Of a stretch of 46,887 nt of DNA, positions 34,524-46,554 are shown piece after piece (the stretch's first letter is position 1; every line of letters begins with the position of its first letter). This stretch comes from an uncultured Bacteroidales bacterium (GTDB lineage: Bacteria; Bacteroidota; Bacteroidia; Bacteroidales; ML635J-15), in contig CAYOUD010000001.1 in NCBI GenBank assembly GCA_964407055.1, forward strand, positions 11,838 through 58,724, in the 5' to 3' direction. The notes beneath the pieces are model-generated. The model ran no database searches. It was not told where the DNA came from and saw only the letters and a list, made by a program, of their open reading frames with translations. The position numbers and the translations under genes are program-made.

Positions 34524-37500
34524 ATGAAGTATTTTTTACATATCGCCTTTTTTTTGATGATGATTATATCCCTTAACTCCAGTGCGCAAAATGTTGGAAA
34601 TGAGTGGATTGATTATGATCAGGAATATTATCGTGTGCCGGTAACCGAAGATGGAATTCATCGCATACCATATCAAGTATTAGTAAATCGAGGTTTTCCG
34701 GCAAACGAAATTGACCCACGCCGAATTCAAATTTTTTATGAAGGTGAAGAGCAATACATTTATATTAAGGGAGAAGGAAGTAACGGGATTTTTGACCCTT
34801 CAGGATATATTGAGTTTTACGGACAGCGAAATCGTGGATATCGGGACACTGTCCTTTGGGATTCGCCGGAAAATTGTATAAATCCTGATTATAGCCTTTT
34901 TACGGATACCGCAATTTATTATTTGTCCTACAACAATTCTACAAATAATCATCGGATTGCAAATATTATCGACAATAATTTTGATGATTACACAGGAAAT
35001 TTGGCAACTTATTGTATAAAACATGTGCGACAAAACTATGTCGGAACATATTATGGCGCTTCTACACAATGCGTTTATACAGAAGGAGAATCTTATTTGG
35101 ATGCCTCGATACAAGAAGGAAGCCCCCGTACAAAGTCTATTTCAACAGCTTCTGCAAGTTCGGCTGGGCCGGATGCTGTAATAGAAATGGCTGTTGCCGG
35201 AACGCCAAATGAAGATTTTATATCCCCTGTACCTCATCATTTAAAAGTTGATTTTCTGGGAGCTACGCGGGTTGATGAAATATATTATGGTTACGAGTTT
35301 GTCCGCAAGCAGGTGGAAATTTCTGCATCTCAAATTCCGGAGCAAATCAGTTTTGTGTTTTCATCCAATGATGTGCAGTCTCCCAGTGTAAATGATTACA
35401 ATCGTTTGGCTTATATTGACATAAATTATGCGCATAATTTTGATTTTGAGGGAGCAGATCAATTTGAATTTTATCTCCCGTCGGGAAGCGGTGCAAAAGA
35501 CTATCTTGAAATCACGAATTTTAATACAGGCAGTTCCGTGTTTTTATTTGATATCGACCAACATGAGCGAATTCTTGCTGTTAATGATGGCGATATGTAT
35601 AAAGTGCTTGCCAACAATAATAGTACAACCCGCCGTATGATTCTAACAAATCAGGATGGGCTGATTCTTGTGGATTCTTTGGCTTCGGTATCACAAAACG
35701 GAAAATTCACTGATTATTTGACTGAAAATCCCAATCCGCAATATTTAATTATCACTCACCCAAAACTCATGTCGGCTGCTCAGGATTATCAGGCATACCG
35801 AAACAGTACCGGACACAATGCTGTAATTTTTAATGTTGAGGAATTGTATGATCAATATGTTTACGGCGTGAAAAAACATCCGTATGCAATGAGAAATTTG
35901 GTTCAGGATATTATCAACCGAACTGCTCGCCAACCCGATTTCTTGTTCTTGTTGGGGAAAGGAATCAGAACTGCTACGGCACGAAATAATGCTGATTATT
36001 TTAATAATAATTTAGTGCCAAGTTTTGGAAATCCACCGAGCGACGTCTTGATTACTGCCGGCATGGAGGATACGAATTTTGAACCTTTAATAGCAACTGG
36101 TCGTTTGGCGGCAAAAACTAATCAGGAAGTCTTAAATTATCTCGATAAAGTGATGGCATATGAGAGCAACCCGGTGGATGAGTGGATGAAACAAATTATG
36201 CATTTCGGTGGCGGAGCAAATGCAAATGAACAGGAAACTTTTGCATCCTATCTGGAAGATTATGAGGAAATTATTGAGGACACATTGTTTGGCGGATATG
36301 TTCATACTTTTTTGAAAAACAGTTCAGCTCCCATACAAATATCGACTTCAGATTCTGTTCGGAATATAATCAATACCGGAACGAGTATGATGTGTTTTTT
36401 CGGGCATGGATCAACCAGCGGATTTGATCAAAATATTGATTTTCCGGAAAATTATAGCAATCAGGACAGATATCCGTTTATGCTGGCAAATTCTTGCTTG
36501 GCAGGAAATATTCATTTGCAATACAGTGAAAGTAGCAGTGAAGATTGGGTGCTTATTCCAAATCGGGGAGCAATTGGGTTTCTTGCTTCAGTTGGGCGAG
36601 GATTACCCTCATATTTGAATGTGTTTTCAAGAAATCTGTATCGGCAAATCGCTTATGAAAATTACGGAACTCCAATTTCATATCAGCAACAACAGGGAAT
36701 AAAAAATGCACAACAAGGCAGTTTGACGGATATCCGTTTAAAAGTAACTTGTCATGAGATGACATTACATGCTGATCCGGCGATACGAATAAATTTTGCC
36801 GAACTCCCTGATTTGAAAATTACAAACGGCGATTTACGTTTTTCTCCCGAGGAAGTAAGTACCGTTCAGGATAGTTTTCAGGTTTTTGTTGCAGTACGAA
36901 ATGTTGGCAGGGCGTTTCAGGATAGTTTTTTAATTCATGTTGAGCGTCGTTTCCCGGATAATAGCACGAAAACTTTAGACATTACAAGGGAAGGAAGTTT
37001 ATATCTTGATACCATCATGTTTAAACTTCCGGTAAATAGTGAAAAAGGACCCGGTTTAAACCAACTTGTTGTTCGATTGGATTATTACGATGAAATTGAG
37101 GAATTGAGTGAGCTAAATAATAATCTGACGCTGAATTTCTTAATTAGCTCCAGCAATTTATTCCCGATTTATCCATACGAATATGCAATTTATCCGAATG
37201 CCTTGGTGACATTAAAAGCATCTACCGGTATACCTTTCGCCCCGGAAATGCAGTATTTATTCCAAATTGACACAACCGATTTATTTAATTCCAATCTTGG
37301 GGCGCCGCTTTATTCAGGGGATGTTGCTTCCCCCGGAGGCGTTGTTGAATGGTCTGTTCCCATAAGTCTCCTAGCGGATCAGGTTTATTATTGGCGAGTT
37401 GCAGCATCACACCCAAATCCTGATTCTGTCCGATGGAATGAATCTTCGTTTATTTACATTCCAGGAGAAGAAGGTTGGTCGCAAGCGCATTTTTTTCAAT

Positions 37501-39530
37501 TTAAGAAAGACAAGTTCAATTTCATGAATTACAACAGAGATACTCGTGATTTTTCTTTTGTTGAAGCTGCCAGACAAATTCAAGTACATAATCAGGGAAT
37601 ATTATGGACTCAAACGTATAGTGATGTTTTCTGGAGCATCGATGGCGCAATTGGAAGTGGACTTGGTGATGTCGGCTGTTGCGGACCATCACCTGCCATG
37701 ATTGTTGCTGTAGTTGATCCGGTTGAACTTCGTGGATGGATGTCAGATTATCAGGATTTTGGGCACAGAAATTATCCGAAATGTTTTTCACAGGGTGGCC
37801 CAGGCTCTTTTTTCGTGTTTAGTACCGGTTCGGCTGATGATTTTAACGAAGAAGCAATGTTAGCCATGAATGACATGCTTGTAAATTATGTTCCAGATGG
37901 ACATTATATTGTGGCATATTCCTGGGCTGACGGTTATTTTGAAAGCTGGAGTGAAACGCTTTTAACAACATTTGAAAGTTTGGGCTCTACTCAGATTCGC
38001 ACGATTCCAAATGATATGCCGTATATCTTTTTCTGTCAGAAAGGTGATCCTGATTCTGCGGAAGAGGAGGTTGGAGATAATCCGAGTGCTGAGATTGATT
38101 TTTATGTTGATCTTACTACGCCGTTTAATTATGGAACGGTGTTAAGCACTGTGATTGGCCCCTCAAATCATTGGAGCTCGTTGCATTGGTACCAAGAGAG
38201 TATGGATGACCCGGATTTTGATATCAGTCAACTGGAGATTCTTAAATTCGACCCTGTGACATTTGAGGAAACTCCCATTGATACTGTGTATCCACCAAAT
38301 TATGAAATTTATCAACTAAATAATGAGATTCCGGCATCTGAAAATCCATTTTTGAAATTGAAATTTCGCACCCGTGATGATTCTGTCAAAACTCCCGGGC
38401 AACTTGACAAGTGGCAGATACGCTACACAGGTATCCCAGAAACGGCAATCAATCCACAAGCAGGTTTTTATTACAGTGGCGATACCGTAATGCAAGGTGT
38501 GGATTTTGAATTTGCATTGGCAACAGAGAATATTAGCCCTTATGATATGGATTCTCTGCTTGTGAAATATTGGCTGCAAAGTTCAAATAACGAGATGATT
38601 GATTTGGGGACAAAACGATTAAGTCCGCATCCGGCAGGGGATGTTATTATGGATACTTTACAATTTAATACCATCGATTTAAGTGGACTAAACTCTATAT
38701 GGATTGAATATAACCCAAGCGTAGCCGGTGGGAATTATGATCAACCGGAGCAGTATCATTTTAATAACATTGCGCAGTTTTATTTTTATGTTCAAAGCGA
38801 TGATAAAAATCCAATATTAGATGTTTCTTTTGATGGAGTAAGAATCCTAGACGGAGACATTGTATCGGCGAAACCTGAAATATTAATCAGCTTAAATGAT
38901 GAAAATCCCTATTTGGCACTGAATGATACTGCCTTGTTTAGAGTTTATCTTACCGACATAAACGGCGGGACAGAACATCGGATATTTTTCCGTGATAGTT
39001 TTGGCAATGAACAGTTGGAGTGGACTCCCGGTGTTTTACCTGAAAATAAATTCCGCATTGTATATCGCCCCGAATTTGATGCGGATGGCATTTATCAGTT
39101 GAGGGTACAGGCAACCGATATGTCAGGAAATGAATCCGGCGATTTTGACTTTACCATAAGTTTTGAAGTGATTACAAAGTCGAGCATTACTCACATTCTC
39201 AACTATCCCAATCCGTTCTCAACGTCAACCCGATTTGTTTTTGAACTGACCGGTTCGGTTATCCCGGATGAAATTCGCATTGAAATTTATACCGTTACCG
39301 GAAAGCTTGTTAAAGTGATTGATCAATATGAGCTGGGCCCGGTAAATATTGGTCGGAATATTTCAGAATATGCGTGGGATGGTACTGATATGTATGGCGA
39401 CCGCTTAGGAAATGGCGTGTATTTTTATCGTGTAAAAACTAAAATTCAGGGTGAGGATATTGAACGTCGTTCCAATGAATCGGATGCGTTTTTTAAACAA
39501 GAAATTGGCAAAATGTACCTCATGCGATAG
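34524..39530 (+). CDS. C25 (gingipain-type) cysteine peptidase, PorU-like T9SS sortase paralogue (PorU2-like), 1668 aa
   Basis: The PorU-like N-terminus reads WIDYDQEYYRVPVTEDGIHRIPYQVL. Catalytic His context is MCFFGHGSTSGF and Cys context is FMLANSCLAGN. The C-terminus has an Ig/CTD-like domain (ILNYPNPFSTSTRFVFEL...GVYFYRVK). The gene stops at TAG 39528-39530, inside the left 71-nt repeat. Confidence 0.7.
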   Translation: MKYFLHIAFFLMMIISLNSSAQNVGNEWIDYDQEYYRVPVTEDGIHRIPYQVLVNRGFPANEIDPRRIQIFYEGEEQYIYIKGEGSNGIFDPSGYIEFYGQRNRGYRDTVLWDSPENCINPDYSLFTDTAIYYLSYNNSTNNHRIANIIDNNFDDYTGNLATYCIKHVRQNYVGTYYGASTQCVYTEGESYLDASIQEGSPRTKSISTASASSAGPDAVIEMAVAGTPNEDFISPVPHHLKVDFLGATRVDEIYYGYEFVRKQVEISASQIPEQISFVFSSNDVQSPSVNDYNRLAYIDINYAHNFDFEGADQFEFYLPSGSGAKDYLEITNFNTGSSVFLFDIDQHERILAVNDGDMYKVLANNNSTTRRMILTNQDGLILVDSLASVSQNGKFTDYLTENPNPQYLIITHPKLMSAAQDYQAYRNSTGHNAVIFNVEELYDQYVYGVKKHPYAMRNLVQDIINRTARQPDFLFLLGKGIRTATARNNADYFNNNLVPSFGNPPSDVLITAGMEDTNFEPLIATGRLAAKTNQEVLNYLDKVMAYESNPVDEWMKQIMHFGGGANANEQETFASYLEDYEEIIEDTLFGGYVHTFLKNSSAPIQISTSDSVRNIINTGTSMMCFFGHGSTSGFDQNIDFPENYSNQDRYPFMLANSCLAGNIHLQYSESSSEDWVLIPNRGAIGFLASVGRGLPSYLNVFSRNLYRQIAYENYGTPISYQQQQGIKNAQQGSLTDIRLKVTCHEMTLHADPAIRINFAELPDLKITNGDLRFSPEEVSTVQDSFQVFVAVRNVGRAFQDSFLIHVERRFPDNSTKTLDITREGSLYLDTIMFKLPVNSEKGPGLNQLVVRLDYYDEIEELSELNNNLTLNFLISSSNLFPIYPYEYAIYPNALVTLKASTGIPFAPEMQYLFQIDTTDLFNSNLGAPLYSGDVASPGGVVEWSVPISLLADQVYYWRVAASHPNPDSVRWNESSFIYIPGEEGWSQAHFFQFKKDKFNFMNYNRDTRDFSFVEAARQIQVHNQGILWTQTYSDVFWSIDGAIGSGLGDVGCCGPSPAMIVAVVDPVELRGWMSDYQDFGHRNYPKCFSQGGPGSFFVFSTGSADDFNEEAMLAMNDMLVNYVPDGHYIVAYSWADGYFESWSETLLTTFESLGSTQIRTIPNDMPYIFFCQKGDPDSAEEEVGDNPSAEIDFYVDLTTPFNYGTVLSTVIGPSNHWSSLHWYQESMDDPDFDISQLEILKFDPVTFEETPIDTVYPPNYEIYQLNNEIPASENPFLKLKFRTRDDSVKTPGQLDKWQIRYTGIPETAINPQAGFYYSGDTVMQGVDFEFALATENISPYDMDSLLVKYWLQSSNNEMIDLGTKRLSPHPAGDVIMDTLQFNTIDLSGLNSIWIEYNPSVAGGNYDQPEQYHFNNIAQFYFYVQSDDKNPILDVSFDGVRILDGDIVSAKPEILISLNDENPYLALNDTALFRVYLTDINGGTEHRIFFRDSFGNEQLEWTPGVLPENKFRIVYRPEFDADGIYQLRVQATDMSGNESGDFDFTISFEVITKSSITHILNYPNPFSTSTRFVFELTGSVIPDEIRIEIYTVTGKLVKVIDQYELGPVNIGRNISEYAWDGTDMYGDRLGNGVYFYRVKTKIQGEDIERRSNESDAFFKQEIGKMYLMR

Positions 39531-39561
39531 GTTTACCACTGTACTCCCATCGTTTGATTTA
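39491..39561. repeat. Left copy of the perfect 71-nt direct repeat flanking the R-M island
   Basis: TTTTAAACAAGAAATTGGCAAAATGTACCTCATGCGATAGGTTTACCACTGTACTCCCATCGTTTGATTTA is identical to 42782-42852. The bases flanking each copy differ on both sides. Confidence 0.97.
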
Positions 39562-39779: not shown

Positions 39780-39787
39780 TATATTTG
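39780..39787 (+). promoter_or_regulatory. Candidate -7 box (TATATTTG) for the island operon
   Basis: Matches TAnnTTTG, 33 nt upstream of the HTH gene ATG. Confidence 0.4.
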
Positions 39788-39801
39788 TCATAAAATGACA
39801 A
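39785..39801. promoter_or_regulatory. Palindromic candidate operator (C-box-like): TTGTCAT-AAA-ATGACAA
   Basis: Perfect 7+7 inverted repeat overlapping the candidate -7 box, 19 nt upstream of the XRE/C-protein start. Confidence 0.5.
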
Positions 39802-39820: not shown

Positions 39821-40147
39821 ATGAAAGAAACATTCGGAGAATATATAAAATTATTACGGACTGAAAATGGGATGACCTTAACTCAATTAGCAGCACAATT
39901 AGATATGGATTCTGCAAATTTGAGCAAAATAGAAAATAACAAGAGGGAATTTGATGAAAGACGATTGGAAAAACTTGCAGATGTTTTCAATTTGGATGCA
40001 GATAGATTAAGGGATGAGCTTTTCAGTGAAAAATTTGCAAAAAAAATTTATGATAATTGTTGCTCTGAAAACGCATTAATCTTAGCAGAAGAAAAGGTGA
40101 AGTACCTTAAACAGTCAAATATTAAACAAGGAAATTTAGATTTTTAA
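39821..40147 (+). CDS. XRE-family helix-turn-helix regulator, probable R-M controller (C) protein
   Basis: HTH segment MTLTQLAAQLDMDSANLSKIENNKREF. It is the first gene of the island operon and lies 2 nt upstream of the methyltransferase start. Confidence 0.75.
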   Translation: MKETFGEYIKLLRTENGMTLTQLAAQLDMDSANLSKIENNKREFDERRLEKLADVFNLDADRLRDELFSEKFAKKIYDNCCSENALILAEEKVKYLKQSNIKQGNLDF

Positions 40148-40149
40148 TT

Positions 40150-40950
40150 ATGAAAATAGTATCATTATTTGCAGGTGCCGGTGGGCTTGACTTAGGTTTT
40201 TCAAAGGCAGGGTTTGATATTGTCTGGGCTAATGAATATGATAGAGATATTTGGAAAACATACGAAAAAAACCATCCTAATACAACCCTTGATAAAAGAA
40301 GCATTACAAAAGTACCAAATGAAGATGTTCCTGAATGTGATGGTATTATTGGAGGTCCTCCTTGTCAAAGTTGGAGTGAAGCGGGCTCCTTGCGTGGTAT
40401 TGATGACAATAGAGGTCAGTTATTCTTTGATTTCATTCGCTTGCTTGAAGCAAAACAACCTTATTTTTTCTTGGCAGAAAATGTTTCCGGAATGCTTTTA
40501 TTGAGACATAAAGAAGCCCTTGATAACATTAAAAAACATTTCAAGAACGCTGGAATTGGATATGATTTGCATTTTAAACTGCTTAATGCAAAGAATTATA
40601 AAGTTCCACAAGATAGAAAGCGAGTTTTTTTTATTGGCTTTAGAAGTGATCTAAATATTGATTTTAATTTTCCTGAAGGCTTTAATGAAATAATTCCACT
40701 AAGCAACACAATTAGCGATTTAACGGAGAACGTCCTAAGTGCAAAAAATGGAAAAAATGCAAATAATGGGAATTGCAACGTACCTAATCATGAATATATG
40801 GATGGTGGTTTTTCGAGTATTTTTATGTCTAGAAATCGAGTAAGAAGCTGGGATGAAGTTTCATTTACTATTCAAGCAGGCGCCAGACATGCTCCTCTGC
40901 ATCCACAAGCTCCAAAAATGAAATTTATTGAGCAAAATATTGCAGCATAA
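40150..40950 (+). CDS. DNA (cytosine-5)-methyltransferase, M.HaeIII-like, C-terminally truncated (motifs IX and X absent); probably non-functional
   Basis: Motif I LFAGAGGLDLGF, motif IV GGPPCQSWS, motif VI FFLAENVSGM, motif VIII QDRKRVFFIGF. The target-recognition region NHEYMDGGFSSIFMSRNRVRSW...LHPQAPKM closely tracks M.HaeIII as I remember it. The ORF stops 10 codons later without QGFP / GNAVP motifs. It is 266 aa against ~330 aa for the family. Confidence 0.7.
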   Translation: MKIVSLFAGAGGLDLGFSKAGFDIVWANEYDRDIWKTYEKNHPNTTLDKRSITKVPNEDVPECDGIIGGPPCQSWSEAGSLRGIDDNRGQLFFDFIRLLEAKQPYFFLAENVSGMLLLRHKEALDNIKKHFKNAGIGYDLHFKLLNAKNYKVPQDRKRVFFIGFRSDLNIDFNFPEGFNEIIPLSNTISDLTENVLSAKNGKNANNGNCNVPNHEYMDGGFSSIFMSRNRVRSWDEVSFTIQAGARHAPLHPQAPKMKFIEQNIAA

Positions 40951-41186
40951 TGGAAAGTATAAAATTTGAAAATGAGTTTTATTTAGTTAGAGAATTAGTA
41001 ATTCCTGAATTTGGATATGTAAAAGTAAGCACATTAGGTTTAAATTTTAAAATGATGCTTGATGATGGTTCTTACTTTTCAGAGAAAGCAAGGATTTTAG
41101 ATGAAGATATTTTCTTTTATGTAGAGTTAAATCAAATAATGTTTAATGAATATCAATTGATTAATCTACTAAAGAGTGAATTATGA
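40950..41186 (+). CDS. Hypothetical acidic 78-aa protein
   Basis: The start overlaps the methyltransferase stop (TAATG) and the stop overlaps the next start (ATGA). It has 14 Asp/Glu against 7 Lys/Arg. No family recognised. Confidence 0.5.
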   Translation: MESIKFENEFYLVRELVIPEFGYVKVSTLGLNFKMMLDDGSYFSEKARILDEDIFFYVELNQIMFNEYQLINLLKSEL

Positions 41187-41689
41187 TTCAATTTCAATTT
41201 TTTCCAAGGTCACAAGGAATTACACCAAAAATAAAAGCCATAATTGACTGTTTTGTTGAGGCAAATGGTAAAATTGATTCTGATTATAAAAATCTCAACA
41301 GTAATGCGGTCTTAAAAGAATTATCTGAGCCATTAACTAAACTTGGGTTTAAAGTTGAATTAAGTAAATCAAAAGATGATAAAATAAATGTGCCAGTATT
41401 ATTTGGATTTAATGACCAAATTGATAAATGTTTTAACGCTGATGCTCTAAACGATGATGGTACTATTGTAATTGAAGTTGAAGCTGGAAGAGCAACTGAG
41501 AACAATCAATTTTTAAAAGATATTTTTCAAGCATGTATGATGTTTGGAGTTGAATATTTGGTTATTGCTGTTAGAAATATTTACAGAACACATAAAGATT
41601 TTGAAATTGTATATACATTTTTGGAAACACTTTATATTTCCAATAGGATGCATTTGCCATTGAAAGGTATATTACTTATTGGGTACTGA
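41183..41689 (+). CDS. 168-aa PD-(D/E)XK-fold protein with a BamHI/BglII-like E-x-E signature (restriction-endonuclease-like)
   Basis: The segment FNADALNDDGTIVIEVEAGRATENNQFLKDIF...VEYLVIAV...LKGILLIGY parallels BamHI PIDVY...GMEFETGNISSAHRSMNKLL...IDLAIILMP...PFIFIGF as recalled. Candidate residues are D87, E98, E100 and K112. Confidence 0.5.
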   Translation: MIQFQFFPRSQGITPKIKAIIDCFVEANGKIDSDYKNLNSNAVLKELSEPLTKLGFKVELSKSKDDKINVPVLFGFNDQIDKCFNADALNDDGTIVIEVEAGRATENNQFLKDIFQACMMFGVEYLVIAVRNIYRTHKDFEIVYTFLETLYISNRMHLPLKGILLIGY

Positions 41690-41776
41690 CCGCGTGAGGG
41701 ATTGAAGCGGTTACCCCACAGCGAGGAACGAGCGAGGAGTAAAAGCGGAAAGCCCGACCCGCAGGGGCACGCCCAA
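41690..41776. other. GC-rich (~65%) purine-rich 87-nt element between orf168 and the endonuclease frame; candidate structured RNA or element end
   Basis: I counted 55 G/C in the 84 nt at 41691-41774, in an AT-rich context. A possible interrupted 9-bp stem spans 41691-41700 / 41714-41723 with a 13-nt loop. No start codon is present. Confidence 0.5.
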
Positions 41777-41780
41777 ATAA

Positions 41781-42734
41781 AAAACAGTAAAAGCATTTGA
41801 ATATGCTCTTTTAAAAGAATTCTATCAACGATTAAAAACCCCTAATAACAACGTAATTATTGTTGAAAGTGAACCATACAATACTGCAAAATCTTGTTTT
41901 GAAAGTTTTTGTGAAGATGAACAAGGATTTTATTCTCTTGTGTCTAGTGCTTCAATAAACTTTCTTGTTGATATTGAACCTCGCTTATCTAATAGTATCA
42001 GTCCTGAAGATACCTTGCAACTTGAAATTGTTTCTGATAGTGAAGGACAATCTGGTGATGTTAGAGATGTTTTAGCAATTCGCTTACTTCAAAAATGGGA
42101 AATAGGTATCTCAGCAAAAAATAATCACAGAGCAGTAAAGCATTCTAGATTATCACAGAAGATTGATTTTGGTGAAAAATGGCTTGGTGTACCCTGCTCA
42201 AAAAAATATTTTGAGGAAATCAAACCAATTTTTGATTATTTGACTGCATTGAGGGAAATGGACAAAGATACAACGTGGACTTCTATTCCTGATATGCATC
42301 AGAAAATATATGTTCCATTACTTGATGCCTTTAAACGAGAGTTACAACGATTAAATGATGAGAATCCGGAGATTGTACCACAAAAACTTGTAGAATATTT
42401 AATTGGAAATAAAGATTTTTATAAAGTAATTAAAGGAAAAAACAAAGTAGAGATTCAAGCCTATAACTTACATGGGACACTAAATTTACCTTTTGATAAA
42501 GTAAAACCTAAAGCGAGAATTCAAAAGCTTAAATTGCCAACAAGATTGATTGAAATTGTTTATGACAATAACTCTGTCACAACTATGATTGTCTCTCTCA
42601 GTGAGGGTTGGCAAATTTCTTTTAGAATCCACAGTGCAAGTTCAAGAGTTGAACCGTCTTTAAAATTCGATATTAATTTGATTAGCGCACCCCATACACT
42701 CTTTAACAATCATATTTTTATTGGGGAGAAGTAA
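41781..42734 (+). pseudogene. Type II restriction endonuclease (HaeIII/GGCC-type inferred from its partner), lacking a start codon
   Basis: The frame is open for 317 codons directly after a TAA at 41778-41780 and begins KTVKAFEYALLKEF... The first canonical in-frame start is a GTG 53 codons in (track ORF 41940-42734). A PD-(D/E)XK-like segment GDVRDVLAI...WEIGISAKNNHRAVKHSR is present. Confidence 0.55.
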
Positions 42735-42781: not shown

Positions 42782-42852
42782 TTTTAAACAAGAAATTGGC
42801 AAAATGTACCTCATGCGATAGGTTTACCACTGTACTCCCATCGTTTGATTTA
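42782..42852. repeat. Right copy of the perfect 71-nt direct repeat
   Basis: Identical to 39491-39561. It supplies the functional 3' end (NQTMGVQW*) of the minus-strand gene 42824-43585. Confidence 0.97.
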
Positions 42853-43585
42853 CCCAAAATGTGGTTTTAGTCTTTAATTGTTGAATATCGCAATCGCTTT
42901 CGGTAATATCGACAGTAAGATTTTGGATTTCCTGCTGTTTAAAAGCGTTTAAAACCGGAATAAGGCTTTCAAATTCAGTGCATTGTGTTTGCAACATAGC
43001 ATTTCTGATGAATTCGTTTTCTACCGTTTCATCCGATAACATAAGCCGATTACTTTCCAACCAAATTCCTGTAATAATTAAGCCTGCAAGCGCTGAACGT
43101 TGTGCTTGTATCAAGTCAGATGTGACAGAGGTATAGGCTTGGTTTAGGATTTGAAGCAAACTGTCCGATGTATAGACATTTCGCTCAATTTTTTCAACCG
43201 CAAAAAGAATTTCATCCCGAGGTAAATCCAATGCAAAAAATCGACTTTCAAGCTCTGCTGCATATTCCATGCTTAAATTTACACGGTTAAAATAGCGCAG
43301 GTAGCTTAAATCTGCAAGTAAAATGCCGGTTTGCAAAGCAATCTGCTCATAATTTTCCGGCATTAGAATTTTGTTTGGCATGAGTGTTTCCTGAAAACTT
43401 ATGTTTGCATGCTCAAGCGGGGCAATCATGTCTTGATAACTCGGAATGCTGTCTGGGAGTAATTGAATATCTTCGCTGATTGCACTTTCATCAATTACAA
43501 ATTCGGACTCCTGCTTTTGTCCACAGGAAAAAACCAGTAAACAACATAGCATTAAAATGAATTGCGTTTGTCTCATTATTTCCAA
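42824..43585 (-). CDS. Lipoprotein of unknown function, co-transcribed with GH92
   Basis: Signal peptide plus lipobox (LLVFSCGQ). The body is helical. It overlaps the GH92 stop by 10 nt. Confidence 0.6.
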   Translation of the reverse strand: MEIMRQTQFILMLCCLLVFSCGQKQESEFVIDESAISEDIQLLPDSIPSYQDMIAPLEHANISFQETLMPNKILMPENYEQIALQTGILLADLSYLRYFNRVNLSMEYAAELESRFFALDLPRDEILFAVEKIERNVYTSDSLLQILNQAYTSVTSDLIQAQRSALAGLIITGIWLESNRLMLSDETVENEFIRNAMLQTQCTEFESLIPVLNAFKQQEIQNLTVDITESDCDIQQLKTKTTFWVNQTMGVQW

Positions 43586-46554
43586 TATATTTCATCGGCA
43601 AAAATCCAGCCTTCGCCACCGTATCCAAGGTGCCATTCTGGAATGTCGCCGTAAGTTTTTGCTTTAATTTTTATGTATCTCACCTTTTGGGTTGCGAAAT
43701 TTATTCCAATATCTTCAACAAAAGCACCATATTTATCATCGCTGATTTCAGCTTTCTTAATTCCTGCTTTTTGAAATTGTTTTGACTGATTTGCAAGATA
43801 AAATTCAACGTCTGTCGGCATCCAAATCCAGCTTTTAATGTCTTGTAAAAAACCGACATGAACCGATGAGATTTCCATTGCTCTGCCCAAATCAACAATA
43901 GCAATTAAATCTTGAGCATCATATCCTTGCCATTCTCCTGTGCGGAAATCATTGCCTCCACGGATACCATCAATCAGGGCTGTATTTCCGCCGGCATTAT
44001 ATTGATTACTGTATTCTGAAAATAGCTCAATACTCACTCTGTCATCAATTTTTTTGTATTTCCCAACAACAATGCCGCTTTGCTTTTCGCCCTGCATAGC
44101 AATGCATTGTATCTTAGCATCATCATAAATTGTAATGGGATCTGAATAAATATTTGAGTTTTGATTTGGTTGACTGCCGTTGGTGGTATAAAAAATCATA
44201 ACATCTGCTTGCTGTGGTGTGTGAATTTTTATTTGCAGCGAATCGGAGAAACTCCGTTGTGCAGGTGTCGTTATCGGGCTGATAATGATTGGCTCCTCGG
44301 TAATTCGTGATGTGAAAATTGCATCCTCATTACTACCAAAGTCTTTGTTTGGTGTTGCTCCCATCACAAAATGCAGGTTGCCGCCTTTCATGATTTGTTC
44401 ATGTTCGATGTATGACTTGTTCCATGGCTTTCCATTTATCTCTACCGATTGAATATAAATATTTTTATCGCTGAGATTTTCGGCAGTAATTTCAAACTGT
44501 TTTCCGTTTTCAAGTTGGATAATTGCTGTATCAAACATGGGCGAGCCAAAATCGTAAATTCCGCTTGCCGGATTTACCGGATAAAAACCAAGCGCACTAA
44601 AAACGTACCATGCCGACATTTGTCCGCAATCTTCATTGCCTATATAGCCGTCGGGTTGGTCGCTGTACATTTCATTCATGATTTGTTTTACTAATTCCTG
44701 CGTTTTCCATGGCTTTCCGCAGTAATTGTACATGTATGCAATGTGGTGGCTGGGTTCGTTTCCATGCGCATATTGCCCAATGAGCCCTGTAATATCAACC
44801 TGATGTCTGCCGCTGGTTTCATTATCCGCAGCAAAAAGTGAATCTAACAAAGCATCCATTGCATCCGGGCCGCCAAGCATGTCCATCCACCCATGGATAT
44901 CCTGAGGAACATAAAAACTGTATTGCCATGCATTTGCTTCGGTATAATTGAAGTTTACTTCGGCAGGATCAAATGGAGAAAACCAACTCCCATTCACACG
45001 TGCACGCATGAGTTTTGTATCAGGATCAAAATGATTTTTGTAATACTGTGCCCGTTGGATGAATGTTTTATAAACATCATCTTTTCCCATTTGCTTTGCC
45101 ATTTGTGCGATACACCAATCATCATAAGCATATTCTAAAGCCTTGGAAACTGATTCGTGTTCATCTTCAACGCCAATATATCCTTTGGAAATAAATGCCG
45201 GTAATCCGAGATGATCCATTGTTGCAGAATGAACCATCGCTTCGAGCGCAAGTTCTGCATCAAAATCATCAATGCCTTTGGCATAAGCATCTGCAATAAC
45301 AGGGATAGCATGATAGCCAATCATGCAACCGGTATAATTTCCTGCAAGCTCCCAAACCGGCAGTTGTCCGCCCTGCTCATATTGGGCTAAAAAAGTTTTA
45401 ATAAAGTCGTTTGTTCGTTTGGTTTGGGTAATAGTAAACAGCGGATGCGTTGCCCGATACGTATCCCAAAGTGAAAAAACAGTGTATTGCGTGTGGTTTT
45501 TTGCCTGATAAATTTTATGGTCGATTCCCCGATATTTTCCATCTACATCGGTGAAGAGATTGGGCGCAAGATAAGCATGATAAAGCGCTGAATAAAACAC
45601 CTTTTTTTTGTACTCATCACCACTTACGACAATGTCGCTGAGTTCATCATTCCATGCAGATTTTGCACGGGATTTTATAGACTCAAAATCAAATTTATCG
45701 GTTTCTTGTTCGAGATTTTGTTTCGCACCCTCTATGCTGACAGCAGAAATCCCAACCTTCACGATAAGTACCTTGTCTTTCAAATCATTAAATCCGGCAA
45801 TGACTTTAATACCTTTTCCGTAGGCATCAAACGCATCGTTGATATCTGCATCATTAATTTTATAAAAAATTGAATTGATTGGTTCGGAAAAACGGGCATA
45901 AAAATACACATGCTGATCTTCAGCCCAAGCTTGTGAGCGACGAAATCCGGAAATATCCGTTTCATTAATCTGCTTAAATCCCGATTCAAGTACTTCGTCA
46001 CGGTGGGCAAGGTCAATCATCATGTATGCCGTGTCGTTATTGTTGTAACGGTATTTGTGAACTCCTGTCCGTTCGGTAACAGTAAGTTCAACATCTACAT
46101 TCGGTGTTTCGAGATGCACAGCATAGTAACCGGGTGAAGCAATTTCTGTGTCATGACTAAAAACAGAACCATAACCGGGTTCATCAAAGAAATATCCGCT
46201 ATCATAGGTGTATTTTCCACTCATTGGCATGAAAAGAATATCACCGTAATCTGAAACTCCGGTTCCGCTAAGATGTGTATGGCTGAATCCGTAAATAATT
46301 GAATCTGAATAGTGATATGCAGAGCAGCCGTCCCATCCCGTTAAACGAGTATCAGGGCTGAGTTGAACCATTCCGAAAGGCATACTTGCCCCCGGATACG
46401 TATGACCATGTCCTCCGGTACCAACCATGGGATTTACATATTGGCTCAGGTCATGAATTGTTTTTTTATGTTTTGGAATAAAGAAAGTGACAAATACGAG
46501 TGCTGCAATAAATGCAAGCATAAAAAGTATCGGAAACGTTTTGCGATTTTTCAT
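43576..46554 (-). CDS. GH92 alpha-mannosidase with C-terminal CHB_HEX_C-like and discoidin (F5/8 type C)-like domains
   Basis: GH92 N-terminus reads YVNPMVGTGGHGHTYPGASMPFGMVQLSPDT. The core has YHYSDSIIYGFSHTHLSGTG and the GNEPSHHIAYMY / GNEDCGQMSAWYV motifs. The C-terminus has FYTTNGSQPN and galactose-binding-like segments. Confidence 0.85.
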   Translation of the reverse strand: MKNRKTFPILFMLAFIAALVFVTFFIPKHKKTIHDLSQYVNPMVGTGGHGHTYPGASMPFGMVQLSPDTRLTGWDGCSAYHYSDSIIYGFSHTHLSGTGVSDYGDILFMPMSGKYTYDSGYFFDEPGYGSVFSHDTEIASPGYYAVHLETPNVDVELTVTERTGVHKYRYNNNDTAYMMIDLAHRDEVLESGFKQINETDISGFRRSQAWAEDQHVYFYARFSEPINSIFYKINDADINDAFDAYGKGIKVIAGFNDLKDKVLIVKVGISAVSIEGAKQNLEQETDKFDFESIKSRAKSAWNDELSDIVVSGDEYKKKVFYSALYHAYLAPNLFTDVDGKYRGIDHKIYQAKNHTQYTVFSLWDTYRATHPLFTITQTKRTNDFIKTFLAQYEQGGQLPVWELAGNYTGCMIGYHAIPVIADAYAKGIDDFDAELALEAMVHSATMDHLGLPAFISKGYIGVEDEHESVSKALEYAYDDWCIAQMAKQMGKDDVYKTFIQRAQYYKNHFDPDTKLMRARVNGSWFSPFDPAEVNFNYTEANAWQYSFYVPQDIHGWMDMLGGPDAMDALLDSLFAADNETSGRHQVDITGLIGQYAHGNEPSHHIAYMYNYCGKPWKTQELVKQIMNEMYSDQPDGYIGNEDCGQMSAWYVFSALGFYPVNPASGIYDFGSPMFDTAIIQLENGKQFEITAENLSDKNIYIQSVEINGKPWNKSYIEHEQIMKGGNLHFVMGATPNKDFGSNEDAIFTSRITEEPIIISPITTPAQRSFSDSLQIKIHTPQQADVMIFYTTNGSQPNQNSNIYSDPITIYDDAKIQCIAMQGEKQSGIVVGKYKKIDDRVSIELFSEYSNQYNAGGNTALIDGIRGGNDFRTGEWQGYDAQDLIAIVDLGRAMEISSVHVGFLQDIKSWIWMPTDVEFYLANQSKQFQKAGIKKAEISDDKYGAFVEDIGINFATQKVRYIKIKAKTYGDIPEWHLGYGGEGWIFADEIYWK

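Follow-up and report, generated by a model that had tools for sequence, protein, structure and literature searches.

Two coupled genes for a predicted BamHI/OkrAI-fold nuclease and a small acidic protein form a cassette within broken HaeIII-like restriction-modification operons

What are two small, overlapping open reading frames (ORFs) doing between a truncated methyltransferase gene and an endonuclease frame that has no start codon? The question is raised by a stretch of 46,887 nucleotides (the window) from an uncultured Bacteroidales bacterium (contig CAYOUD010000001.1), in which the two ORFs are enclosed by the remains of a HaeIII-like restriction-modification (R-M) operon. In the ORF read-out of the window, orf78 (78 amino acids, aa) lies at 40950-41186 and orf168 (168 aa) at 41183-41689, both on the forward strand. 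The start codon of orf78 overlaps the stop codon of the methyltransferase remnant M' (TAATG, 40948-40952), and the start codon of orf168 overlaps the stop codon of orf78 (ATGA, 41183-41186). Overlaps of the latter type between the two genes are seen in most related loci. A previous reading of the letters alone (the sequence-only reading) had described these coupled ORFs, and the exact coordinates and both overlaps were borne out. It had also suggested that the pair displaced the core of a GGCC R-M system. Our preferred explanation, to which we give slightly less than an even chance, is that a methylase-independent module of a nuclease plus a partner, resembling toxin-antitoxin or abortive-infection systems, took over and outlived a GGCC R-M operon.

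Homologues of orf168 are numerous. A word-indexed search returned 3,769 of them, the best 120 being 68-100% identical, and an exhaustive profile search yielded 1,029 clusters at 50% identity, nearly all consisting of single-domain proteins of approximately 165-200 aa. Genome matches of at least 65% identity were found in Bacteroidota, Gamma-, Beta- and Alphaproteobacteria, Acidobacteria, Spirochaetes, Firmicutes (Selenomonadaceae), Planctomycetes and Cyanobacteria. The ratio of nonsynonymous to synonymous substitution (dN/dS) of orf168 is 0.03-0.18. Reference proteins were mapped onto 83 non-redundant loci carrying orf168 homologues (733 kb; related loci are numbered L001 etc.), and in 54 of these an ORF of the orf78 family, as detected with the family profile, adjoins orf168 (49 directly upstream, 5 directly downstream). 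Because of the numbers of homologues and clusters, the low dN/dS and this adjacency, both ORFs are more than chance reading frames.

The AlphaFold (AF2) model of orf168 has a predicted local distance difference test (pLDDT) score of 85.9. Its best PDB match in Foldseek is the restriction endonuclease OkrAI (probability 1.00, E = 1.5e-3, template modelling (TM) scores 0.61/0.55), and several BamHI chains rank after it. E59, D87, E98 and E100 are invariant across 35 close homologues; in 25 distant relatives (36-54% identity) E100 is invariant, and D87 and E98 are at least 90% conserved. The order E59...D87...E98-x-E100 resembles that of the acidic residues of BamHI (E77/D94/E111/E113), and orf168 shares the order of core elements with OkrAI and BamHI in a small single-domain protein. 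These results agree with the BamHI-type fold and the D..ExE site proposed by the sequence-only reading, for which a Foldseek search with a structural model had been suggested as a check, and they add E59. Judged from the model, orf168 is predicted to be a miniature Type II-like restriction nuclease that folds like BamHI and OkrAI and has an E..D..ExE active site. With 168 aa it falls short of OkrAI (192-194 residues resolved); no sequence or profile similarity to OkrAI or BamHI was detectable, and an intact cognate methylase is missing. Historically it was partnered by a C5 methylase of the HaeIII-like kind; the methylase of BamHI is of the N4 type.

No match to orf168 was found in Pfam, NCBIfam, PADLOC or PHROGs, and the earlier statement that neither protein belongs to a named family holds for the libraries searched. 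One homologue bears the precomputed Pfam accession PF26497, so the family may already be catalogued; no characterisation of it was found. Two other kinds of nuclease were considered. A Vsr-like mismatch nuclease was rejected, as orf168 has no Vsr profile match and true Vsr proteins are encoded by a separate gene beside distant relatives. A methyl-GGCC-dependent (Type IV-like) nuclease would explain the broken methylases and was judged unlikely: distant relatives share an operon with intact C5 methylases (L164, L116, L089), and orf168 has no domain that binds 5-methylcytosine.

The upstream protein had been described as small and acidic, with 14 D/E against 7 K/R. This composition was recovered, and the isoelectric point (pI) is 4.36. 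Acidity is a property of the whole family, which has a mean pI of 4.7 and a mean net charge of -8. The AlphaFold model of orf78 (pLDDT 94.6) has no significant structural match in the PDB or BFVD, and in 22 family members no Pfam domain was detected, nor any helix-turn-helix (HTH), ribbon-helix-helix (RHH) or AbrB DNA-binding domain. A search with the single sequence of orf78 found only two relatives. Two relatives from other phyla each overlap a downstream gene encoding 168 aa, and an equivalent ORF stands at the same position in Cyclonatronum and in most related loci. The family profile detected only one further copy in the 733 kb, and no orf78 relative was encountered without orf168. orf78 evolves far faster than its neighbours: between the window and L005 it is 43% identical, against 96% for orf168. 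In 11 of the 83 loci the position of orf78 is occupied by an unrelated acidic protein, which is helical and 60-68 aa long (94 aa in L020). Being acidic and tightly linked to orf168, orf78 may be an inhibitor, antitoxin or DNA mimic, but its fold matches nothing. The possibility that it is a diverged methylase C-terminus was discarded: its ARxxxDDF.F.Y resembles motif IX (ARxIDExIFYFV) by eye, but comparing the alignments of both families with hhalign gave a probability of 0.2%.

Both genes that flank the cassette in the window are broken. The upstream gene encodes M', a HaeIII-like C5 methyltransferase of 266 aa (40150-40950, forward strand), which contains motifs I-VIII and the target recognition domain and lacks motifs IX and X. 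It covers positions 1-253 of the 324 positions of Pfam DNA_methylase (E = 8e-72). M' terminates ...HPQAPKMKFIEQNIAA*, whereas complete relatives run on through RRLSVRECAR..GNAVPV; its final codons and stop (...KMKFIEQN-IAA*) correspond to those at the 3' end of native M. Downstream of the cassette is R', the frame of a HaeIII-type endonuclease (41781-42734, forward strand), of which 41790-42734 matches positions 2-298 of the 298 of RE_HaeIII (E = 2e-101). This frame is open for 314 codons after a TAA at 41778-41780 and contains no ATG, GTG or TTG before 41940; about five native first codons (MAKVA) have been replaced. The native N-terminus of R reads MAK(V/I/N)A(S/T)QTINGKAFEY, and in loci of the window's class the R reading frame picks up again at (S/T)QTINGK (approximately codon 6), immediately downstream of a structured element. 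In the window itself a TAA replaces the Gln of this N-terminus, and Asn-Gly is lost. A start-less R' is also found in Cyclonatronum (L001, where the gene caller took ATA), L013, L017 and L065. Expression of R' by a programmed -1 frameshift at ATG GGA AAG was rejected, as the slippery heptamer is not conserved, and its out-of-frame ATG was dismissed as a by-product of the Asn-Gly codons AAT GGN.

The same situation recurs among the related loci. In 46 of the 83 loci the cassette has fragments of a HaeIII-like M gene and of a HaeIII- or NgoPII-type R gene on its flanks, all running in the same direction. None of these 46 contains a complete, start-bearing methylase, and none of the 37 upstream M genes is complete. 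The ends of the cassette are constant: the left end lies just 5' of the partner ATG, and the right end is the stop codon of orf168 or the end of a structured element of the Flavo-1 type. The flanking genes are cut variously: the last residue of upstream M lies between 28 and 261, and the downstream fragments set in between residues 2 and 261 of M or between residues 1 and 234 of R. With M and R cut at many positions and no complete M beside the cassette, two statements of the sequence-only reading have gained support, that the cassette displaced the core of a GGCC R-M system and that no intact methyltransferase partner is present. In five diverged loci of the NgoPII type (L003, L047, L059, L061, L077) a full-length RE_NgoPII-type gene precedes orf168, its stop overlapping the orf168 start, and of the downstream methylase at most a C-terminal fragment is left. 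The genes on either side are plainly homologous to those of HaeIII and NgoPII systems (RE_NgoPII in L003), and a controller (C) protein with a C-box-like palindrome is likewise present; in contrast to those systems, M lacks motifs IX and X, R lacks a start codon, and the cassette is foreign to both.

The left end of the cassette, ATT GCA GCA TAA TGG, is homologous to the native overlap of M stop and R start (e.g. aca gca TAA TGG caa in L067). The native start codon of R is therefore now held by orf78, and R is left without a start of its own. Wherever the motif is kept (16 loci), the truncated upstream M ORF continues in frame to end in ...AA*; in most other loci it stops at most 23 nt from the partner ATG. 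The M truncations may represent nested in-frame deletions of the microhomology type, selected for translational coupling into the partner gene. Two other explanations for the M fragments were set aside. A split methylase like M.AquI, completed by orf78 or orf168, is unsupported for the window, as neither protein has GNAVP-type motifs; loci of pattern A do have separate N- and C-terminal M fragments, but these lack about 50 residues between them. An intron- or intein-like insertion was rejected, since the flanking M pieces are non-contiguous and R, not M, follows the cassette in the window.

Comparison of closely related loci indicates that the cassette is younger than its surroundings. L001 and L013 are 95-98% identical at the nucleotide level in the cassette plus the RNA element and 80-88% identical in the flanking M' and R'. 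Between the window and L005, synonymous divergence (pS) is 0.48 for orf168 and 0.65-0.76 for C, M' and R'. The cassette has therefore been exchanged among operons that had already diverged. Besides the 46 loci inside HaeIII- or NgoPII-type operons, stand-alone pairs occur in defence islands, for example in the order AbiH / orf78-orf168 / Abi_2 / Mrr_N; both kinds of context emerged from the survey of homologues that the sequence-only reading had suggested. A variable defence island of Treponema (L178) contains M' (129 aa), orf78, orf168 and R' (148 aa). Two metagenome-assembled genomes of Burkholderiaceae (L026, L040) carry a lone orf168 between trpD and trpC and between hisH and hisA, respectively, its ATG overlapping the upstream stop. 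Carriage on phages or plasmids was rejected: the family is absent from 50,697 phage records, and 72,556 plasmid records contain a single pseudogene. The latter (L087) is an unannotated, stop-interrupted homologue of 51% identity on the Bacillus sp. H8-1 plasmid CP095861 (27318-27821), near dcm, an HhH-GPD/MutY-like ORF and an MvaI/BcnI-family endonuclease gene.

A divergent subfamily, comprising 80 loci with proteins approximately 45% identical to orf168 of the window, occurs in other surroundings. L164 has the order Vsr, orf168, C5 methylase with 3-nt spacing, and a full-length C5 methylase gene follows orf168 in L116 and L089. In L129 an HTH gene overlaps orf168 beside an Eco57I-type methylase, and in L093, L143 and L088 a Vsr or HhH-GPD glycosylase gene adjoins the orf168 relative. 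Because these loci show classical R-M arrangements, the family is derived from restriction enzymes and habitually tied to 5-methylcytosine systems. An adjacent intact methylase was found for the distant relatives L089, L116 and L164 only and not in the subfamily to which the window belongs.

In the host flanks of the latter subfamily, GGCC is the most depleted 4-bp palindrome, with an observed/expected ratio (O/E) of 0.49 (0.48 in loci with local R-M remnants, 0.51 in those without). The window contains 17 GGCC sites in 46.9 kb (O/E 0.28); GATC is also low there (O/E 0.37). In hosts of the divergent subfamily the O/E of GGCC is 0.84, an imperfect comparison given that the host taxa differ. The depletion is in line with a HaeIII-like methylase as the historical partner of the window's subfamily, and it suggests that GGCC could be the target of orf168.

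Directly 3' of orf168 in the window is a structured element (41689-41786, forward strand) that resembles the Flavo-1 motif (RF01705), which was described by Weinberg et al. (2010; PMC2864571) and has no assigned function. The element is GC-rich and aligns to the whole RF01705 model with a different apical part. It scores 31 bits (E = 8e-4), below the gathering threshold of 42 bits, and is hence a sub-threshold variant; copies directly 3' of orf168 in L025, L027, L034, L038, L039, L042, L051, L053 and L062 pass the threshold with 56-64 bits. An alignment of 17 copies gave a common structure of 18 pairs, 5 of them with compensatory changes, into which the copy of the window fits; as the alignment is small and the sequences are related, this is modest evidence of covariation. 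With a model built from this alignment the element of the window scores 93.6 bits, and 20 matches were found in the 733 kb, 17 of which lie directly after orf168 on the same strand. We count the element as a component of the unit. Flavo-1 copies in flavobacteria are dispersed and occur in either orientation (PMC9723704). For the genomes studied here a generic dispersed repeat was rejected in view of the 17 positions directly 3' of orf168 and the single copy in the window, the 46.9 kb of which contain no other copy of this type. L062 and L066 have a second, inverted Flavo-1-type copy 1-3 kb upstream. The element may act as a terminator or insulator, as a stabiliser of the mRNA 3' end or as a recombination site. 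In four Acidobacteria (L029, L063, L068, L072) a conserved hairpin-rich sequence is located 3' of orf168, followed by an ORF starting MWNDTDIPLAVFFTF..., which presumably encodes a protein resembling the REP-associated tyrosine transposases (RAYT).

How could such a locus have arisen? According to our preferred explanation, orf78 and orf168 would be a self-contained, horizontally exchanged two-gene cassette that fills the second, translationally coupled gene slot of GGCC-type R-M operons, the ATG of orf78 being placed on the native overlap. The HaeIII-type R gene would thereby lose its first five or so codons together with its start codon. With R unable to start, M would become dispensable and erode, and in-frame deletion of motifs IX and X would keep ribosomes flowing into orf78. 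The R-M genes would then be a decaying shell around the cassette, which selection would keep and which would persist and spread. A small acidic partner (orf78, or the unrelated acidic protein elsewhere) would hold the nuclease in check, so that the proposal includes a putative toxicity of orf168, a putative inhibitory activity of orf78 and a possible role of the pair in defence. The cassette would be expressed by translational coupling from the operon controlled by the C protein. This protein (108 aa, 39821-40147, forward strand; HTH_3, E = 2.6e-12) is encoded upstream of M', and the C gene is kept at that position in L001, L005, L013, L015, L018 and L065. At 39785-39801 on the forward strand, 20 nt 5' of the C gene, is the C-box-like palindrome TTGTCATAAAATGACAA, a candidate operator; the matching palindrome TTGTCAAAAAATGACAA is likewise located 5' of the C gene in L001, and the one in the window is likely to be the C-box. 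With the stop/start overlaps and this conserved palindrome present, expression from a C-controlled operon, as the sequence-only reading had it, is plausible.

The organisation is reminiscent of Type II toxin-antitoxin and abortive-infection modules. A small acidic upstream gene overlaps a co-directional enzyme gene, the pair is highly mobile, the partner families are interchangeable, and AbiH, Abi_2 and RelB/YoeB are found nearby in defence islands. Unlike in toxin-antitoxin modules, the putative toxin is a DNase with a restriction-enzyme fold, the partner has no HTH or RHH domain and an unmatched fold, and about a fifth of the orf168 loci are without any partner. A more far-reaching version of our explanation holds that a lineage of Type II restriction endonucleases swapped self-protection by a methyltransferase for a protein partner, that the cassette captures the second-gene slot and silences and outlives R-M operons, and that the Flavo-1-type element belongs to it as its 3' element; this version we regard as doubtful.

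Several observations weigh against a toxin-antitoxin-like module. The likeness of orf168 to OkrAI and BamHI is at the level of the fold, with no sequence or profile match in the PDB to any solved restriction endonuclease, and searches of PADLOC and PHROGs with the cassette proteins were empty. In Pfam and in the PDB and BFVD structure searches, orf78 is unlike any known antitoxin, DNA mimic or regulator. The pairing that the sequence-only reading had proposed to examine is not universal: orf78 is next to orf168 in the 54 loci mentioned above, while the 11 loci with the unrelated partner and a further 18 of the 83 with no small partner depart from it. In these 18 the ATG of orf168 overlaps the stop of another gene (RE_NgoPII, trpD, hisH). 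Where orf168 is joined in this way to trpD, hisH or an intact RE_NgoPII gene, the genomes concerned thus tolerate orf168 alone. Finally, M' and R' have dN/dS values of 0.05-0.2 between loci with the same junction (the window, L001 and L017), which is hard to reconcile with long-dead genes unless the invasions are recent or were spread by recombination. The R' frame, start-less as it is, remains unbroken over 311-314 codons in the same three loci. This could be a legacy of selection that acted before recent, recombination-mediated invasions, or it could reflect non-canonical expression.

The dN/dS values of M' and R', which for R' include the first 50 codons, lend some support to a different explanation, in which C, M', orf78, orf168, the RNA element and R' form a functional, rewired five-gene system with active M' and R', the latter being translated non-canonically by means of the Flavo-1-type element. 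An identical architecture in another phylum (Cyclonatronum) and the conservation of the structured element with its compensatory changes point in the same direction. We nevertheless consider such a system very improbable. The lesions at the 5' end of R' differ by lineage (TAA and loss of Asn-Gly in the window; stops in L002, L017 and L019; a frameshift/stop in L065), M' varies in length from 28 to 261 residues between loci, and no start or slippery site is conserved. Furthermore, M' lacks motif X, which is part of the S-adenosylmethionine pocket in C5 methylases. Less improbable, and still unlikely in our judgement, is that orf168 acts as a conventional Type IIP restriction enzyme for GGCC or a GGCC-containing site, protected by a GGCC methyltransferase encoded elsewhere in the genome. 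orf78 would then be a minor accessory (a subunit or an expression timer), and the locus would be the wreck of an R-gene replacement by recombination with HaeIII-/NgoPII-type systems through the shared M. The arrangements of the distant relatives (V-R-M, R-M or C-R), the left end of the cassette, which is how a HaeIII-like M gene naturally ends, and the depletion of GGCC in hosts both with and without local R-M remnants all suit this explanation, and the intact RE_NgoPII genes without a local M would likewise require a distant protecting methylase. However, dependence on a methylase should keep some adjacent copies, and not one of the 37 upstream M genes is complete. No second C5 methylase is present in the 46.9-kb window, nor within 16 kb in the Treponema locus L178, and the mutual replacement of two unrelated acidic partners is more readily expected of inhibitors than of obligate subunits.

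The cassette could also be a selfish element of the homing-endonuclease type and have no cellular function. Its nuclease would promote copying of the promoterless cassette into the stop/start junctions of operons (R-M, trpD/trpC, hisH/hisA) by break-induced or transformation-mediated recombination. Known free-standing homing endonucleases include those of the T4 seg/mob genes, and I-Ssp6803I is an enzyme of the PD-(D/E)xK type. Like free-standing homing endonuclease genes, orf168 is a nuclease ORF located in or between conserved genes without transposition machinery, and the cassette is younger than its flanks. One or two ORFs are inserted precisely, without transposase or terminal repeats, and in operons unrelated to each other the start codon overlaps the stop of the preceding gene; in two pairs of loci the cassette is more similar than the flanks; and the distribution is extremely patchy across phyla, with near absence from plasmids and absence from phages. 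This explanation appears improbable to us all the same, because homing endonuclease genes have one long target, whereas the cassette is found at junctions in many genes and positions (M, R, trpD/trpC, hisH/hisA and others) and has a linked partner gene in most loci. A dimer of BamHI size that reads approximately 6 bp would cut the host often, so that host protection would still be needed, and orf168 is under strong purifying selection.

Not only the cassette but the whole operon remnant is mobile. What the window and L005 have in common is the entire unit (78.6% nucleotide identity); the genes around it are not shared. In the window the unit is enclosed by a perfect direct repeat of 71 bp, the left copy (39491-39561) being 100% identical to the right copy (42782-42852). 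The repeat brackets the unit and extends into the 3' end of a host gene, as do repeats at R-M units inserted with long target duplication (Furuta, Abe and Kobayashi, 2010; PMC2853133). The bracketed unit contains no integrase or transposase. In distinction from the published class, the 71-bp repeat is a candidate target duplication for which no empty site was recovered. The upstream neighbour is a Peptidase_C25-type gene encoding 1668 aa (34524-39530), the last 40 nt of which are overlapped by the left repeat, and the downstream neighbour is a GH92 glycosidase gene (43576-46554); both are ordinary Bacteroidota genes. The metagenome contig k141_611521 (ENA ERZ27317826) matches the window.

The inferences on structure and on a displacing cassette that were made from the letters alone hold, and the proposed function as inhibitor and toxin-antitoxin pair is plausible in the light of the present analysis. 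A restriction-type nuclease and a toxin-antitoxin-like organisation are known themes; new are a large uncharacterised family, a partner with a novel fold and an unexpected link to an orphan RNA. The nucleases of about 168 aa with a predicted BamHI fold constitute a very large family, whose members would be some of the smallest enzymes of the restriction type and may have a specificity related to GGCC. Their acidic partners are possibly specific inhibitors of a Type II-like nuclease, and the Flavo-1 motif obtains its first consistent genomic context. If our explanation holds, annotators should be cautious with R-M systems of this architecture, as these would be non-functional shells. It would also mean that one selfish defence module can invade and hollow out another, and it would show how restriction-modification can evolve into toxin-antitoxin-like immunity, with a protein partner taking over from the methylase while the nuclease is retained.

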